Below are positions 46,116 through 58,238 of a stretch of DNA of 64,000 nt, piece by piece (position 1 is the first letter of the stretch; the number at the start of each line of letters is the position of its first letter). Under the pieces are notes generated by a model. The model worked only from the letters and a program-made list of their open reading frames with translations. It was not told where the DNA came from and searched no databases. The position numbers and the translations under genes are program-made. Source of the stretch: Shigella phage SFPB; the sequence record OQ031072; one strand, written 5' to 3'.

Positions 46116-46386
46116 AGAACAATGGGATATCAAAGAGCTAATTAGCGAAGCTGGAAATGGTAGTGAGATGTATATGATACGTGGTCACGTCCCAGATGCA
46201 CTTGCTATTGAGATGATAGACCACTACTCCAACGGATTCTATAAAGAGTTTGGAGAGCCAAATATTGAACGTACTTGGACAAAACCAGTACCAGACGGAA
46301 CAGGAAACTGTTCAGTTATCTACCATATTGTAGACCCAAAGAAATGTAAATCAGCTATGGCTGTAACATTTGTAACTTTTGATTGA
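46108..46386 (+). CDS. hypothetical protein; start trimmed
   Basis: SD GAGG; 92 aa. Confidence 0.4.
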   Translation: MAREQWDIKELISEAGNGSEMYMIRGHVPDALAIEMIDHYSNGFYKEFGEPNIERTWTKPVPDGTGNCSVIYHIVDPKKCKSAMAVTFVTFD

Positions 46387-46396
46387 GAGAAATATT

Positions 46397-47278
46397 ATGA
46401 AAACTACTATTCGAGTTCTACTTAATTCAAATTCCAAAGGTTCTCATCAAGAGACCTTCAACATTATCCAGTTCCCTTCTGGGGAGATTGGTGGTAACTT
46501 CTCAGAAGACTTAGTAGACTTTGCTGAACATGCTGCTGGTAAGATTGAAAACGTAATATTCACTGTACAAGGTTATGACAAAGACACACTCTTTGCATTG
46601 GCTATGGCTAAAGAAGCAATTGACCGTTTGATTCCTCAGAAAGCAACCCTGAAAACTGTTGTCTTTGGATTCTTACCAAATGCTCGCTATGACCGTCACA
46701 TGTTTAAAGGTGATGCAGCAGCACTTAAAGTCTTTGCAAATCTTGTAAATGCTATGGAGTTCGATGCAGTATGTGCTCTGGATACTCACAGTAATGTTGC
46801 AGAGAATTTGTTTAAGAGCTTCTACAACCTCCCTCAAAAAGAGGCAGCAGTCCACTTTGCAAGTGACCCACGCATTGATTACTTAGTGGCTCCAGATGCA
46901 GGTGCAGCTAAGAAGACTGAAGAGGCTGCTAAAGAGGTTGAGAAACCTTACATTACAATGGCTAAGGTACGAAACCTGAAAACTGGTGAAATCACTGGTA
47001 TGCGAATCCTTGATGATGTAGACTTGACAGGTAAGACCGTCATGATTCTGGATGATATCTGTGACGGTGGTCGAACATTTATCGAGGCTGCAAAGTATCT
47101 TCGTGAAGCTGGAGCAGAACGTGTAGAACTGTATGTCACTCATGGGATTTTCTCTAAAGGTGTTGAAAATCTCCTTGACAATGGTATCGACCATATCTAC
47201 ACTACAAACTCACTAGGGGATGAAAAAGACCGTGGTCTTTCCCACTTCTCACAAGTGACCGTAGCAAATATTGAATAA
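46397..47278 (+). CDS. ribose-phosphate pyrophosphokinase (Prs)-family enzyme; candidate ADP-ribose pyrophosphokinase (Adps-like); start trimmed
   Basis: Prs architecture: N-domain FPSGEI, DTHS segment, phosphoribosyltransferase loop GKTVMILDDICDGGRTF. Confidence 0.7.
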   Translation: MKTTIRVLLNSNSKGSHQETFNIIQFPSGEIGGNFSEDLVDFAEHAAGKIENVIFTVQGYDKDTLFALAMAKEAIDRLIPQKATLKTVVFGFLPNARYDRHMFKGDAAALKVFANLVNAMEFDAVCALDTHSNVAENLFKSFYNLPQKEAAVHFASDPRIDYLVAPDAGAAKKTEEAAKEVEKPYITMAKVRNLKTGEITGMRILDDVDLTGKTVMILDDICDGGRTFIEAAKYLREAGAERVELYVTHGIFSKGVENLLDNGIDHIYTTNSLGDEKDRGLSHFSQVTVANIE

Positions 47279-47322: not shown

Positions 47323-49149
47323 ATGACTAAATCAATCTATGCAGTACCAGCAGGTCTTAATGCAGATGCTTATAAAGCGGGTCATATCTATCAGTATCCA
47401 GATGCTACACAGTATCTTATGTTGAACTTAACACCTCGTGGAGATAAATGGTTTAACTCTCCGTTAGAGATTGATGGTGTTGTAGCTTTTGGTATTCAGC
47501 GTTTTGTAAAAGACTATCTGGTAGACCACTGGAATGCAACGTTCTTTGAACGTGATAAGAAAGAAGCCATTGACGAAATCTTGGAAATCATGAATGGTGT
47601 CCTTGGTGCAGATACTATTGGTCGTCAACATTGGGAAGAACTTCATGACTTGGGTTACCTACCTGTTGAAGTCTACTCTGTAGAGGAAGGTACAATTGTC
47701 CCTATGCGTGTCCCGATGATTGTCTTCAAAAATACTGTAGAGGGATTCCATTGGGTAGCTGGTTACCTTGAAGATGCTTTCTCTGCTGAAATCTGGAAAG
47801 CTTGTACGATTGCAACTATTGCACTGCATTACAAACGTATTTGTAAGCAATGGGCTGATTTAACCTGTGACAACGACTCCCATTTACCTTGGCAGTGTCA
47901 TGACTTTGCAATGCGTGGCATGTCTGGCTTCACAGATGATGCGTTTAACGCAGTAGGACACCTGACAAGCTTTAAAGGCACTGACAGCTTCCCTGCTGTC
48001 TACACTGCTAAACGTTCTTATGGTCAGTTTATGGAAGTAAGTGATATCGGCAACTCTGTACCAGCTACTGAACACTCTGTGATGTGCGCAAACATTTCAT
48101 GGAATATGAAAGACTTGTCAGAGGAAGATATTCATTCACAGTACATCATGCGGTCTGATAGCTTGCTGGATGCAAAACGTTGGCGTGGTGAGGTTAAAAC
48201 CTTTGAGCATTTACTGGTAGACGTATATCCAACTGGTATTGCAAGTGTTGTTTCAGATACTTACAACTTCTGGCGTACTGTTACAGAGATTCTGCCAGAG
48301 CTACGTAATGTAATTCTGAATCGTGATGGTAAGTTGGTAATTCGTCCAGACTCTGGAGACCCTGTTCACATTGTTACAGGTTACAAAGCCGTTGAATGGG
48401 AAACTGCTAAGTCAATGTTCTACAAGCACATGAAAGGTCTTGCACCAGATAATACCCATCTGCATGACACAATCTTGAATTGTGAAATGTCTGATATTGG
48501 TTTTGGGTTCTCTGCTTGGTTAATCTCTGAAGGTTATGAGATGGTTGTTGAAAATGAAGATTTTGATTATATTGATACAATCAACCTGATTACCGCTCAG
48601 AAAACTGGACAGTTTACTGTGAAGCGTATGTTAACAGCAGAAATTGATGGAGCTATCCACACGCTGTATAACATATTTGGTGGCACTGTTAACTCCAAAG
48701 GGTACAAAGTACTGGATGAGCACATTGGGCTAATCTACGGTGATTCTATCACTCTGGAAAGGGCTAATGAGATTCTGTCACGTCTTGCTGATAAAGGTTT
48801 TGCAAGTTCTAACGTGGTGTTTGGTGTAGGCTCATATACCTATCAGTACCTGACCCGTGACACCTTTGCATTTGCTGTTAAAGCAACTCTTGCACAGATG
48901 GATGGTCAAGAAATTATGCTGGCTAAAGACCCTAAAACTGACAGTGGTCTTAAGAAGTCTGCTTTTGGTGGGGTTGTCCCTATGTGGGATGGTGACAAGC
49001 TGGTAGCTGTAGATGGTTTTGGATTTGCAGAGTTTGAAGGTGCAATTGACAATTGCCATAGTGCTTTGAAACTGGTATTTAGCAATTCACAGGCTTGTAA
49101 CCGTGTTAACCTGCGTGATGTTCGAAATACTATTGACAAGCAACTTTAA
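47323..49149 (+). CDS. nicotinamide phosphoribosyltransferase (Nampt/NadV)-family enzyme; candidate Namat-like
   Basis: LNADAYKAGHIYQYP, HDFAMRGMSGF...FKGTDSF and IRPDSGDP segments align with Nampt. Confidence 0.8.
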   Translation: MTKSIYAVPAGLNADAYKAGHIYQYPDATQYLMLNLTPRGDKWFNSPLEIDGVVAFGIQRFVKDYLVDHWNATFFERDKKEAIDEILEIMNGVLGADTIGRQHWEELHDLGYLPVEVYSVEEGTIVPMRVPMIVFKNTVEGFHWVAGYLEDAFSAEIWKACTIATIALHYKRICKQWADLTCDNDSHLPWQCHDFAMRGMSGFTDDAFNAVGHLTSFKGTDSFPAVYTAKRSYGQFMEVSDIGNSVPATEHSVMCANISWNMKDLSEEDIHSQYIMRSDSLLDAKRWRGEVKTFEHLLVDVYPTGIASVVSDTYNFWRTVTEILPELRNVILNRDGKLVIRPDSGDPVHIVTGYKAVEWETAKSMFYKHMKGLAPDNTHLHDTILNCEMSDIGFGFSAWLISEGYEMVVENEDFDYIDTINLITAQKTGQFTVKRMLTAEIDGAIHTLYNIFGGTVNSKGYKVLDEHIGLIYGDSITLERANEILSRLADKGFASSNVVFGVGSYTYQYLTRDTFAFAVKATLAQMDGQEIMLAKDPKTDSGLKKSAFGGVVPMWDGDKLVAVDGFGFAEFEGAIDNCHSALKLVFSNSQACNRVNLRDVRNTIDKQL

Positions 49150-53639: not shown

Positions 53640-54188
53640 ATGAAGAAATTTGTTTTAGGTTTGTGCTTATTCTTTACAGCACATTTAGCTACAGCGTCTG
53701 ACTGTCCAGAGCTTACAATCAGTCAGAAAGTTAATATGTTAAAAGCATATAACTATGGCGAAGGACAGATGGGAAAAGGTTGGGGAATCCCTTTAGCAGC
53801 TATAGCCTTACAAGAGTCACAATTAGGTGTCATGTTAGAAAATAAAAAGACTCATGATTATGGTGTTTTCCAAAATCACTTGAAGACTGTTGTAAAGCGT
53901 AACAAGGTATCTCCAAAGGTTGCTAAGAAGAAGCTAGTAAGTGACTTCCATTACTCAGCGAAAGAGGCTCATAAGGAGCTATTATTCTGGACTAAGGTTC
54001 ATGGTAACCCAGATGGAAAGTACTCTATGAAGCGTGTCCTAGCTTCTTATAATGCTGGTTACAAATACAAGATTCCAAAGGCTAGACAATACTCTCAAGA
54101 TGTGTACAATAACATGAAACTGCTGGCTCAATGTGAGTTTGCAACAAACATTAAAAAGGTAAAATATGAGCGAATCAAAACAATTTGA
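53640..54188 (+). CDS. secreted lytic transglycosylase-like (SLT domain) protein; candidate endolysin; start trimmed
   Basis: Signal peptide MKKFVLGLCLFFTAHLATA; SLT-like core AIALQESQLG...DYGVFQN. Confidence 0.55.
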   Translation: MKKFVLGLCLFFTAHLATASDCPELTISQKVNMLKAYNYGEGQMGKGWGIPLAAIALQESQLGVMLENKKTHDYGVFQNHLKTVVKRNKVSPKVAKKKLVSDFHYSAKEAHKELLFWTKVHGNPDGKYSMKRVLASYNAGYKYKIPKARQYSQDVYNNMKLLAQCEFATNIKKVKYERIKTI

Positions 54189-54861
54189 CATGGTTCTGTG
54201 TCATGCTTATGATATCAAGCCACTTGATTTAGATATCAGTTCTGCAAGTTGGTCAGATATTGCTAAAGCTGACTTTGCAGATACAGCAAGAAATGTTGTG
54301 TGTAGCTTTGAAGACTTCCACTCAACAAAGACACAGATTCCTTGTCAGGATTTGCTAACAGGTAAAACTGTATATGTTGGTCGTAACAGCCTTATCTTGG
54401 TTGCAAAGAACTTGGAAGAAAAACGTAAAATGGTCTTAGCAGACATTGATGGTGTTCTTACAAGTTTTGACAAGAAACTTAATGCAACTCTGTTAGATGA
54501 TGGTACTTACTCACAGTATACTAACTTGGTAGACTCTCGCAGAGCTAAACCAACATATGTTTTTAACATCCTGTGTGGTATATCAAGAAATGCTGATATA
54601 GGATTCTTAACTGCTCGTGGAGAATCACAAAGAGTTGTCACACATCTTTTCCTGAATGAGAATGTAGACAGTGATTTCCTACTGTTTATGCGTGGATTTG
54701 GTGACAATGAGATTAGTGCAGAAAGTTTGAAAGTTCGTATGCTTCAGTCTTGCATTCTACCTTACTATGATGTAGTATGCTTTATAGAAGATACGGTGAA
54801 GAACGTGGCAAAGGTTGAAAGAATCTTACCACACATCAAAACAATGCTTGTTAAAAACTGA
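54166..54861 (+). CDS. HAD-superfamily phosphatase-like protein
   Basis: Motif I-like ADIDGVLT; later LTARG and FIEDT. Confidence 0.4.
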   Translation: MSESKQFDMVLCHAYDIKPLDLDISSASWSDIAKADFADTARNVVCSFEDFHSTKTQIPCQDLLTGKTVYVGRNSLILVAKNLEEKRKMVLADIDGVLTSFDKKLNATLLDDGTYSQYTNLVDSRRAKPTYVFNILCGISRNADIGFLTARGESQRVVTHLFLNENVDSDFLLFMRGFGDNEISAESLKVRMLQSCILPYYDVVCFIEDTVKNVAKVERILPHIKTMLVKN

Positions 54862-56502: not shown

Positions 56503-56737
56503 AGTTACACGTCAAGTGTTAGCAGGGGCTATATTTGTTGGACGGGATGAGGTGATGCCATTTGGTTCACGAATCTATAAAGGTTCTGTACTATCACATA
56601 GCCACTTTAAGGCTGGTGATTTTTGTCACTATATTAACAGGGGCTATCTAAGAGAGGAACTCGGATATTGGAAGACCCGCATTAAGGAAAGATACGGTGA
56701 CAGAGTATTCTTACAAGAGGTAATCTCAAATGGCTGA
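56477..56737 (+). CDS. hypothetical protein
   Basis: 86-aa ORF. Confidence 0.4.
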   Translation: MKAILVRSKVTRQVLAGAIFVGRDEVMPFGSRIYKGSVLSHSHFKAGDFCHYINRGYLREELGYWKTRIKERYGDRVFLQEVISNG

Positions 56738-56930
56738 TTTCTGCACTAAGTGTTCTGTTGAGATGTTTGGAAAAGACACAGGGGACTTAAAAGGCCTCTT
56801 TACAAAAGCAGAGTTTGAAGCTGGTTCAGCAATGCCAGTAATCTGTGAAGGTTGTGGTGCTTTATGGGTAGACCATGAAGGTAACCGAGTTAAACCATCT
56901 GAAGATAACGAACGTTGGGAGCATTACTAA
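56730..56930 (+). CDS. small zinc-ribbon protein
   Basis: CTKCS...CEGCG pair. Confidence 0.4.
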   Translation: MADFCTKCSVEMFGKDTGDLKGLFTKAEFEAGSAMPVICEGCGALWVDHEGNRVKPSEDNERWEHY

Positions 56931-56931
56931 T

Positions 56932-57726
56932 ATGGGTATCGTAAAAATTATTAAAGGTGATATCTTTAAAGACTTTGATGGTAAGAAATTTGATATCATT
57001 GGTCACGGTTGCAACTGCATGAACTTGATGGGTGCAGGTATCGCAGCAACAATTGCCAAACGTTACCCAAAAGCTTATGAAACTGATGCTGAAGTTTATG
57101 CTACAGTAGGTGGTGAAAATCATAACCCTAAGCATCTAATGCTTGGTAACATCTCTGTAGCACGTTTTAAGCAGGGTCGAATTGCTAACCTTTACACTCA
57201 GGTTATCACTGGCAAAGATGCACGATACAACGCCTTAGAAGCAGCTTTACAGCGTCTTAACAACTACTGTAAAGTTAATCAACTTAAGAAAGTTGGACTT
57301 CCTATGATTGGTGCAGGGATTGGTGGTCTTGACAGCATGGCTGTGCTGTCTATCATCAATCAGACCATGAAAGATGTTGACGTTTATATGTATGTCTATG
57401 AAGATAAGATGTACAGTCAGTTGACTAGTCCGGTTACTGGTTGGGAAAACTTTAGTGAACCTCAATACTTTGATGGTGTTGCCGTGGTAGGCAAGGATAA
57501 AGTTACTCTCAAGGTGAAGCGTAATGGTAAGGTACACACCAGTTACCCTCCGGTTGATAAGTACAATCGAAGTAACGCTCAAGTTACCCACCCGTTACAA
57601 GGCCATTGTCACAGAGCCGTAACATTTGGTGATGATGCAAGTGTGTATATCGGTGCTGCTACAGAAGAGTTTGCAGAGGATTATATCACACATGAGAATG
57701 TTAACTATGTTGAAGCACGTAACTAA
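56932..57726 (+). CDS. macro-domain (ADP-ribose binding/processing) protein with C-terminal extension; start trimmed
   Basis: GDIF...FDIIGHGCNCMNLMGAGIAATIAK resembles the macro NAAN...GGGVAGAI signature; second Gly-rich loop LPMIGAGIGGLD. Confidence 0.5.
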   Translation: MGIVKIIKGDIFKDFDGKKFDIIGHGCNCMNLMGAGIAATIAKRYPKAYETDAEVYATVGGENHNPKHLMLGNISVARFKQGRIANLYTQVITGKDARYNALEAALQRLNNYCKVNQLKKVGLPMIGAGIGGLDSMAVLSIINQTMKDVDVYMYVYEDKMYSQLTSPVTGWENFSEPQYFDGVAVVGKDKVTLKVKRNGKVHTSYPPVDKYNRSNAQVTHPLQGHCHRAVTFGDDASVYIGAATEEFAEDYITHENVNYVEARN

Positions 57727-57751
57727 TAAGTTACCTAAATAGACATAGACA

Positions 57752-57799
57752 AGCCCTCCAAAGTTTGAGTTTAAAATCTCAGGTAAGGAGGGCTTTTTC
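57752..57799 (+). terminator. terminator-like hairpin (8-bp stem AGCCCTCC/GGAGGGCT, large loop) with U-tract
   Basis: stem arms 57752-57759 and 57787-57794, TTTTT 57795-57799. Confidence 0.45.
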
Positions 57800-57979
57800 A
57801 TTTCAAATTTGTGCAGGTGCAATTGCATAGAACTCTGGACAGATTTCTTTAGCTGAACTCCAAAGGGAAAATTCATTTTCAATTTGTGCAGGTCTAGACT
57901 CCAAAGAGCTTTTTCATTTTCAATCTGTGCAGATGCAGTTGGACTCCAAAGGGAAAATTCATTTTCAATTTGTGCAGGT
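57795..57979 (+). repeat. tandem direct repeats (iterons), 3 full copies plus 1 partial, unit ~40-45 bp, core TTCATTTTCAAT(T/C)TGTGCAG(G/A)T
   Basis: Copies at 57855-57893, 57896-57934, 57941-57979 (first and third near-identical), partial at 57795-57818. Confidence 0.8.
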
Positions 57980-58152
57980 AGGTAGCTATAGGAAGCCAGC
58001 CCCACCATCCCCTCTTACTCCCCTTCCTCCCAAAAGTCAAGAGAAAAATTTGTAGAGAACTAAAAAATAATTCTTGACTAGTTTTCTGTTTTCTGTTAGT
58101 TGCGTACACGCGTTTCATTCACAACATGCCAAAAATATTTTTAAAAATTTTG

Positions 58153-58238
58153 TTGACTCTATGAATCCAGTTTTGTAGTATTTGCATCAACGGGGCAAGA
58201 TAAAGCCCCAACAATCCTAAACTGGAGAATCTAGAATG
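58153..58238 (+). promoter_or_regulatory. early-promoter cassette, variant B: TTGACT-17-TAGTAT, 5'UTR hairpin GGGGC-N8-GCCCC, CCTAAACTGGAGA RBS
   Basis: -35 58153-58158, -10 58176-58181, hairpin 58191-58208, ATG 58236. Confidence 0.6.

Follow-up and report, generated by a model that had tools for sequence, protein, structure and literature searches.

The macro gene of Shigella phage SFPB (sequence record OQ031072) occupies positions 56932..57726 on the plus strand of the 64-kb stretch of DNA that we analyzed (64,000 nt; here called the window). Translation of its ORF gives a two-domain protein of 264 aa followed by a TAA stop. The macro domain comprises residues 1 to 159 (56932..57408), as delimited by Pfam, Foldseek, the homologue alignment, and identity to T4 Tk.4. 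The C-terminal domain comprises residues 160 to 264 (57409..57723); its predicted elements are a short linker helix and six short beta strands, along with one further helix and an acidic tail. Read from the sequence, a Shine-Dalgarno-like GGGAG (56917..56921, plus strand) lies 10 nt before the ATG at 56932, and a single nucleotide separates this ATG from the stop codon (56928-56930) of an upstream 66-aa ORF. We place the start at 56932 because the homologues all begin with MGIVK or MAIVK and because Shigella phage Sf14 has the same 795-nt CDS; a longer start at 56875 (283 aa) was rejected, since the homologues and the Sf14 annotation begin at MGIVK. The two strings that an earlier note on this DNA had quoted from the protein, KGDIFKDFDGKKFDIIGHGCNCMNLMGAGIAATIAK and GLPMIGAGIGGLD, are both present in the 264-aa translation.

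Judged by its sequence, SFPB is a Felix-O1-like Mooglevirus (Ounavirinae), about 95% identical to Sf14. The 2.5 kb around the macro gene are 94.8% identical to Sf14 and 90 to 94% identical to other Shigella, Citrobacter, and Escherichia moogleviruses, and one homologue cluster (P0001) has 97% identity to the SFPB macro protein. The same CDS in Sf14, gp040 (YP_009618662.1), is annotated as [quoted passage not shown] and other phage records label the gene "macro domain-containing protein" or "O-acetyl-ADP-ribose deacetylase." Because records of sister phages carry macro labels, the macro finding is already known at the level of annotation. The "phosphatase" label goes back to a note in T4, "contains A1pp phosphatase motif," with no assay behind it. 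Our literature search on the Ounavirinae macro protein found nothing relevant.

The macro gene is the last in a same-strand run that reads Prs, Nampt, two small ORFs, rIIA, rIIB, an SLT-like gene, a HAD-like gene, a 154-aa ORF, spanins, four small ORFs, and the macro gene; no tRNA genes were found in the 64-kb window. The genes for Prs (46379-47278, plus strand; ribose-phosphate pyrophosphokinase-like, Pribosyltran/Pribosyl_synth) and Nampt (47323-49149, plus strand; nicotinamide phosphoribosyltransferase, NAPRTase/NAMPT_N) lie side by side and form the phage NAD+ salvage pair meant by the earlier note, which had placed the macro gene next to an NAD+ module. The shared strand agrees with that description, but Prs and Nampt are 7.8 kb upstream, with unrelated genes between, and at this distance adjacency gives no support to a functional link. 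The RefSeq product of Sf14 gp074 (L007:14440-14943) is "NAD synthetase," while its own note describes a GIY-YIG homing endonuclease; the product name is probably a labeling mistake and might mislead counts of NAD+ genes in phages of this kind.

A distant two-domain homologue (P0010, macro part 51% identical) is encoded on an 86-kb contig (L004) in the same order, rIIA-rIIB-...-HAD/PNKP-like-...-macro. The small ORFs upstream of the SFPB macro gene have no Pfam match and are absent beside the macro gene in this distant relative, and we therefore recognize no conserved partner gene. Among them, the 66-aa ORF at 56730-56930 has two CxxC pairs (C5/C8 and C39/C42) and is zinc-ribbon-like; it has no Pfam match and is not beside the macro gene in L004. 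On that Ounavirinae-like contig, an HNH/AP2 homing-endonuclease-like ORF (L004:7694-8023) is inserted directly upstream of the macro gene and overlaps it. The product of 54166-54861 (231 aa), named "polynucleotide kinase" in Sf14, has no Pfam or NCBIfam match in SFPB, and its homologue in the distant relative (42% identity) has only a weak match to HAD_PNKP (PF25109). It looks HAD phosphatase-like without a kinase domain, and its label may overstate its function.

On the 3′ side, 25 nt past the stop codon, RNA folding and an inverted repeat (I1) mark a terminator-like hairpin, AAGCCCUCC ... GGAGGGCUU, followed by a U-run (57751..57803, plus strand; −21.8 kcal/mol, z = −3.0 versus shuffles). 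A simple terminator scan misses it because its loop is longer than the scan allows. After the hairpin comes an intergenic region of 500 nt, which has a promoter-like TTGACT-17-TAGTAT at 58153-58181, before the next small plus-strand ORFs. It is plausible from the sequence that the hairpin and the promoter-like site mark a transcription-unit boundary, and these features make plausible the earlier placement of the macro gene at the end of a gene block. Positions 57776-57979 hold four direct copies of a repeat of about 43 nt (core TTCATTTTCAATTTGTGCAGGT) that is found nowhere else in the window. Sf14 also has four copies at the same place (L001:11254-11436), and its annotation runs a "hypothetical protein" on the minus strand (gp039) over them. 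In SFPB, the ORFs on the minus strand at 57595-58008 and 57894-58118 are probably not genes, their peptide repeats stemming from the DNA repeat, and the array is possibly a protein-binding site or a regulatory array.

Several independent searches assign the N-terminal part of the protein to the macro domains. Residues 25 to 141 match Pfam Macro (PF01661) at 32.9 bits (E = 7e−8), above the gathering cutoff of 22 bits. When a profile of 32 homologues was compared with PDB sequences, the best match was TARG1/OARD1 (E = 2.3e−17), and Mycobacterium tuberculosis DarG (7e−15), Poa1p (6.4e−14), SCO6735 (PDB 5E3B; 4.6e−13), BT1257, and Taq DarG were also matched. The AlphaFold2 model of the full-length protein, built from the alignment of 32 homologues, has a mean pLDDT of 91 and a pTM of 0.88. 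Foldseek matched this model to Poa1p (E = 8e−11), TARG1 (1.6e−10; target-normalized TM [TMt] 0.87), and DarG (8.5e−10; TMt 0.83), the TMt values for the three lying between 0.77 and 0.87. There were 242 PDB matches at E ≤ 0.001, and the best 50 of the 242 are macro-domain structures or hydrolases designed on a macro scaffold, with TMt up to 0.87; among these 50, the macro domains of viruses and those resembling MacroD place lower than Poa1p, TARG1, and DarG. Each of the PDB matches listed spans only about 155 to 180 columns, which correspond to the N-terminal domain. Taken together, the profiles and the predicted structure make it certain that residues 1 to 159 are a macro domain; its fold is of the TARG1/DarG/Poa1p (ALC1-like) class, and its ADP-ribose-binding loops are intact.

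The earlier note had recognized a macro domain in the N-terminal ~160 aa, and profile, structure, and homology evidence all bear this out; fold prediction, examined for a non-macro fold, gave a macro fold. The note had named DarG, MacroD, and Af1521 for comparison. DarG was recovered by the homologue profile, Foldseek, NCBIfam, and PADLOC. The likeness to MacroD and Af1521 did not hold: the catalytic loop N-x6-GG[VLI]-D is replaced by N28-CMNLM-GAGIA, in which the Asp is absent, and MacroD-like structures are lower among the listed matches. Because the N-x6-GGxD loop is absent, the SFPB macro domain is not of the MacroD type.

The macro motifs of the protein are H25-G-C-N28-C, G34-A-G36-I-A38, N86-L-Y-T89-Q90, and P124-x-I-G127-A-G129-I-G-G. 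Residues I23, G26, N28, G36, A38, N86, T89, Q90, P124, G127, and G129 are invariant across the 32 aligned sequences, in which the Gly-rich loops GAGIA (34 to 38) and IGAGIGG (126 to 132) are conserved, and H25 is invariant among close homologues. In the profile alignment to TARG1, with high posterior probability, the protein has Q90 opposite K84 and G131 opposite D125, so that in place of the Lys84/Asp125 catalytic dyad there are Gln90 and Gly131. Comparison with PhiKZ gp104 by BLASTP and MAFFT likewise puts N28 opposite N23 and Q90 opposite K78. The catalytic Lys of the DarG type (K80 in Taq DarG, K78 in PhiKZ AdfM) is thus Gln90 in SFPB, and because Q90 aligns with TARG1 K84 and PhiKZ K78, we conclude that the SFPB protein and Tk.4 are without the DarG-type lysine.

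In DarG, K80 is equivalent to TARG1 K84, and the K80A mutant is inactive (PMC5179494). In SCO6735, the residue equivalent to K84 and K80 is Gln85, and Q85A loses all activity; the enzyme acts on DNA, where it cleaves ADP-ribose linked to thymidine, and it protects cells from DarT, apparently via an activated water (PMC9411070). The SFPB protein has the SCO6735-type Gln at the position of the DarG and TARG1 Lys, an equivalence that is transitive via TARG1 K84. By analogy with the Gln-type SCO6735, the change from Lys to Gln would be no argument against DNA de-ADP-ribosylation. The comparison drawn in the earlier note, to DarG reversing DarT, is therefore apt for the macro class, which is the same, but not for the active site, where the DarG catalytic Lys is Gln and the match is to the SCO6735 Gln type.

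The closest experimental evidence on function comes from T4. Both the SFPB protein (E = 3.5e−105) and the Tk.4 proteins of T4 and T2 (E = 1.3e−65), which are identical in sequence, match PHROG 335 ("phosphatase"), whose profile also spans the C-terminal domain (profile positions 207 to 312). T4 Tk.4 and the SFPB protein are 40% identical over 136 aa (E = 2e−19). In a genome-wide screen, tk.4 was the single T4 gene that became essential on a DarTG2 host, and a clean tk.4 knockout sensitized T4 to DarTG2; the gene was named adfM (HIDEN-SEQ; preprint 10.1101/2025.11.20.689424). The evidence for an anti-DarTG2 role of Tk.4 is a genetic phenotype, from which its enzymology is inferred (preprint 10.1101/2025.11.20.689424). 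DarG was also the sole match in two model collections: in NCBIfam (NF048014, E = 1.1e−14), the score of 54.5 bits covers the macro part only (profile positions 2 to 153 of 338) and falls below the equivalog cutoff of 250 bits, and in PADLOC the match has E = 4.4e−15. On both DarG models, the SFPB protein outscores Tk.4. A tblastn search found relatives in 2,682 phage records, 240 of which, with at least 80% query coverage, have the two-domain form, while the rest match the macro half only. The two-domain records fall at 95 to 99% identity (30 records) and at 60 to 80% identity (213 records), and correspond to moogleviruses and felixounaviruses.

The earlier note had also described a C-terminal extension of about 100 aa, and this extension is real: the 105-aa domain is conserved across Ounavirinae-like phages and kept in about 20 homologue clusters. 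Its pLDDT is about 90 in the full-length model and 79.7 when modeled alone, and the whole-protein pTM of 0.88 suggests that it packs on the macro domain. A Pfam search of the domain found no family, the only match being DUF4767 at E = 0.095, which is far short of a family cutoff and was rejected as its identity. Foldseek searches found only the SUSP2 orthologue in BFVD and no relative in PDB, and no nucleic-acid-binding or protein-binding fold was recognizable. When we compared a profile of the domain with 1.84 billion representative proteins, there were eight matches: four are the same two-domain proteins, two are fragments (P0036 and P0039), and two (P0037 and P0038) were dismissed as spurious, being repetitive retro-element-like concatemers whose scores are summed over repeats. 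Across these 1.84 billion representatives, the domain was found only fused to a Tk.4-family macro domain.

The C-terminal domain evolves much faster than the macro domain. Identities for the macro and C-terminal parts, respectively, are 90% and 63% in homologue cluster P0002, 74% and 47% in P0007, and 51% and 12% in P0010. Only two residues, P177 and G182, are invariant; N173, F180, and Y239 come close to it. Among homologues, the core carries a net charge anywhere between −6 and +4, which rules out a conserved basic surface for DNA binding and leaves a simple DNA-binding role unsupported. Such fast divergence fits relaxed constraint or contact with a variable partner. Its most likely role would be in targeting, with a substrate, a host protein, or a defense protein as the target, rather than in catalysis. 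We can also envisage that it is a second counter-defense module of a new fold. It might then bind a host defense protein directly (for example, DarT), in analogy to ICP1 AdfB or to the C-terminal domain of DarG, to which it is unrelated, or it might retarget the hydrolase off DarT2-modified DNA; Ounavirinae macro proteins would thereby be dual-mode enzymatic and stoichiometric inhibitors. We hold this to be rather improbable.

Which ADP-ribosylated substrate, then, would the macro domain act on? We propose that the SFPB protein works in the manner of an orphan antitoxin, as a de-ADP-ribosylase that counters DNA modification of the DarT2 type, an inference to which we give an about even chance of being correct. 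A DarT2-type toxin of the host would ADP-ribosylate thymidines in single-stranded phage DNA and block replication; the macro domain would bind the ADP-ribose, cleave the base-ribose bond, and restore the DNA. Catalysis would proceed without the Lys nucleophile of DarG and TARG1; instead, Q90 would position both an activated water and the distal ribose, the mechanism put forward for SCO6735, and N28 would take part. A counter-defense role against ADP-ribosylation is the best supported, through the homology to Tk.4 and through SCO6735 as a precedent of the Gln type. Moreover, PhiKZ gp104 (also named AdfM) has been demonstrated biochemically to remove DarT2-made ADP-ribose from DNA (PMC13309987), so that a phage macro domain standing alone is capable of erasing such marks. 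The Sf14 annotation, which includes many hypothetical proteins, lists no ADP-ribosyltransferase, sirtuin, DarT, NADAR, Nudix, RNA ligase, Tpt1/KptA, or 2H phosphoesterase. A phage-made ADP-ribosyltransferase as the counterpart of the macro domain was accordingly discarded, none being annotated in Sf14, and this absence favors a host-made substrate and weakens a reading based on RNA repair. Counted against a de-ADP-ribosylase are the missing catalytic Lys, the DarG score of 54.5 bits, far under 250, and the extra C-terminal domain, which could redirect the enzyme to another substrate. In addition, 40% identity to Tk.4 leaves the substrate specificity unfixed, since the substrates of this macro class range over DNA, RNA, protein, and small molecules.

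The earlier note had suggested that a phage macro domain near NAD+ genes could act against ADP-ribosylating or ADP-ribose-signaling defenses or process O-acetyl-ADPR. Of this interpretation, the DarT-directed part is supported indirectly, via PHROG 335/Tk.4 and the sole DarG matches in NCBIfam and PADLOC, and we found nothing specific for degradation of Thoeris signals or for O-acetyl-ADPR processing. If soluble ADP-ribose derivatives were degraded or sequestered (gcADPR or His-ADPR of Thoeris, ADPr-1″-phosphate, ADPr>P, or O-acetyl-ADPR), the protein would blunt NAD+-based defenses alongside Prs and Nampt, which are encoded on the same strand. Iyer et al. are cited in favor of such a role, and the matches include enzymes of this kind, Poa1p (an ADPr-1″-phosphate phosphatase) and OARD1/TARG1 (an O-acetyl-ADPR deacetylase). 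Yet the NAD+ genes are 7.8 kb off, the sole experimental phenotype in the family, that of Tk.4, is against DarTG2, a modifier of macromolecules, and the phage macro domains in our literature search included none shown to degrade Thoeris signals, "macro" in one paper referring to the host ThsA sensor. We consider this the main alternative, though an unlikely one. The protein might also reverse RNA or protein ADP-ribosylation by other host ADP-ribosyltransferase defenses or toxins, with target specificity given by the C-terminal domain. TARG1 and SCO6735, of the same structural class, act on protein substrates too (PMC5179494, PMC9411070), and an extra, fast-evolving domain that is absent in the single-domain Tk.4 is what one would expect of a specificity module; given, however, that the gene context indicates no such target and that this domain has no recognizable nucleic-acid- or protein-binding fold and no conserved charge, this seems quite unlikely.

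The inherited "phosphatase" label has a sense of its own if the protein is a Poa1p-like ADP-ribose-1″-phosphate phosphatase and disposes of a by-product that RNA (tRNA) repair leaves behind. By sequence and by fold, the top PDB match is Poa1p, the HxCNC motif is kept, with the counterpart of Poa1p His23 in it, a HAD/PNKP-like gene 2 kb upstream is syntenic in the distant relative, and the T4 annotation gives Tk.4 an "A1pp phosphatase motif." That label, however, was carried over from a motif and not from an assay, the equivalents of Poa1p S30 and F152 are Leu32 and Gly131, and the genes annotated in Sf14 include no RNA ligase, Tpt1/KptA, or 2H phosphoesterase to make the substrate; we regard such a phosphatase as very unlikely. 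Finally, the absence of the catalytic Lys and Asp residues of TARG1 and DarG would suit a noncatalytic ADP-ribose binder, either a sponge or a reader, and phages are known to deploy sponges that soak up nucleotide signals. Sponges, though, are usually small oligomeric proteins of other folds, and the invariance of N28, T89, and Q90 (and of H25 in close homologues) matches the active SCO6735 with its essential Gln, which makes a mere binder highly improbable.

If the protein is indeed a de-ADP-ribosylase acting on DarT2-type marks, Felix-O1-like phages would carry a built-in counter to DarTG2-type DNA ADP-ribosylation, which would bear on the prediction of host range. These phages are widely used in typing and biocontrol of Salmonella, Escherichia coli, and Shigella. 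Gln-type, lysine-independent de-ADP-ribosylation would then also reach beyond SCO6735 into a large phage family with T4 Tk.4 among its members. The C-terminal domain, with no detectable relative, is a small and tractable target in the search for a module with a new specificity or an inhibitory function. None of this will surprise a specialist, as GenBank already carries macro annotations and a family-level function was proposed in 2025-2026.

Among known systems, the nearest is T4 Tk.4, with which the SFPB protein shares HGCNC, NLYTQ (with Gln and not Lys), and P-x-IGAGIG. Both are encoded by stand-alone phage genes without a partner toxin, but Tk.4 is a single domain of 155 aa, whereas the SFPB protein adds a C-terminal domain of 105 aa; the protection against DarTG2 is a phenotype known only for T4 tk.4. 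PhiKZ gp104 is only 23% identical to the SFPB protein and is of the Lys type, with K78 in place of Gln90. DarG (PDB 5M3E and 5M3I) belongs to the same macro class (Foldseek E ~1e−9, TMt 0.81 to 0.83), and the Asn of DarG N22 and PhiKZ N23 is kept as N28. The DarT-binding C-terminal domain of DarG is absent from the SFPB protein, the C-terminal part of which is unmatched by the DarG models, and there is no adjacent darT: the flanking ORFs have no Pfam match, and no ADP-ribosyltransferase is annotated in Sf14.

Outside the phages and their toxin-antitoxin counterparts, human TARG1/OARD1 (PDB 4J5S) has the highest target-normalized TM among the listed matches (0.87) and the best profile E value (2.3e−17). 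SCO6735 of Streptomyces coelicolor (PDB 5E3B) is a stand-alone macro domain of the same class, with Gln85 corresponding to Q90; it differs in being a bacterial SOS-type housekeeping protein, in having a longer mobile loop with Lys89 and Lys94, and in having no C-terminal domain. Yeast Poa1p (PDB 6LFQ-6LFU) is the best Foldseek match and the top PDB match in a direct sequence search, at 24% identity. It shares I-x-H-x-C-N-C ... G-G-I-A with the SFPB protein, including the His23 equivalent (H25), and is also without the Lys, with FTS where the SFPB protein has YTQ. Of the Poa1p residues probed by the depositors' mutants, H23 is kept as H25, S30 is Leu32, and F152 is Gly131. Poa1p is, however, a eukaryotic protein of tRNA-splicing by-product metabolism, and it has no C-terminal domain.

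The name AdfM has been used by two groups, for T4 Tk.4 (Gln type, genetic evidence) and for PhiKZ gp104 (Lys type, biochemical evidence). By sequence, the name covers two distinct clades of phage macro proteins, and the SFPB protein belongs with the Gln type of Tk.4. It is, then, a further member of a known phage family, and its sole feature without precedent is the lineage-restricted C-terminal domain.
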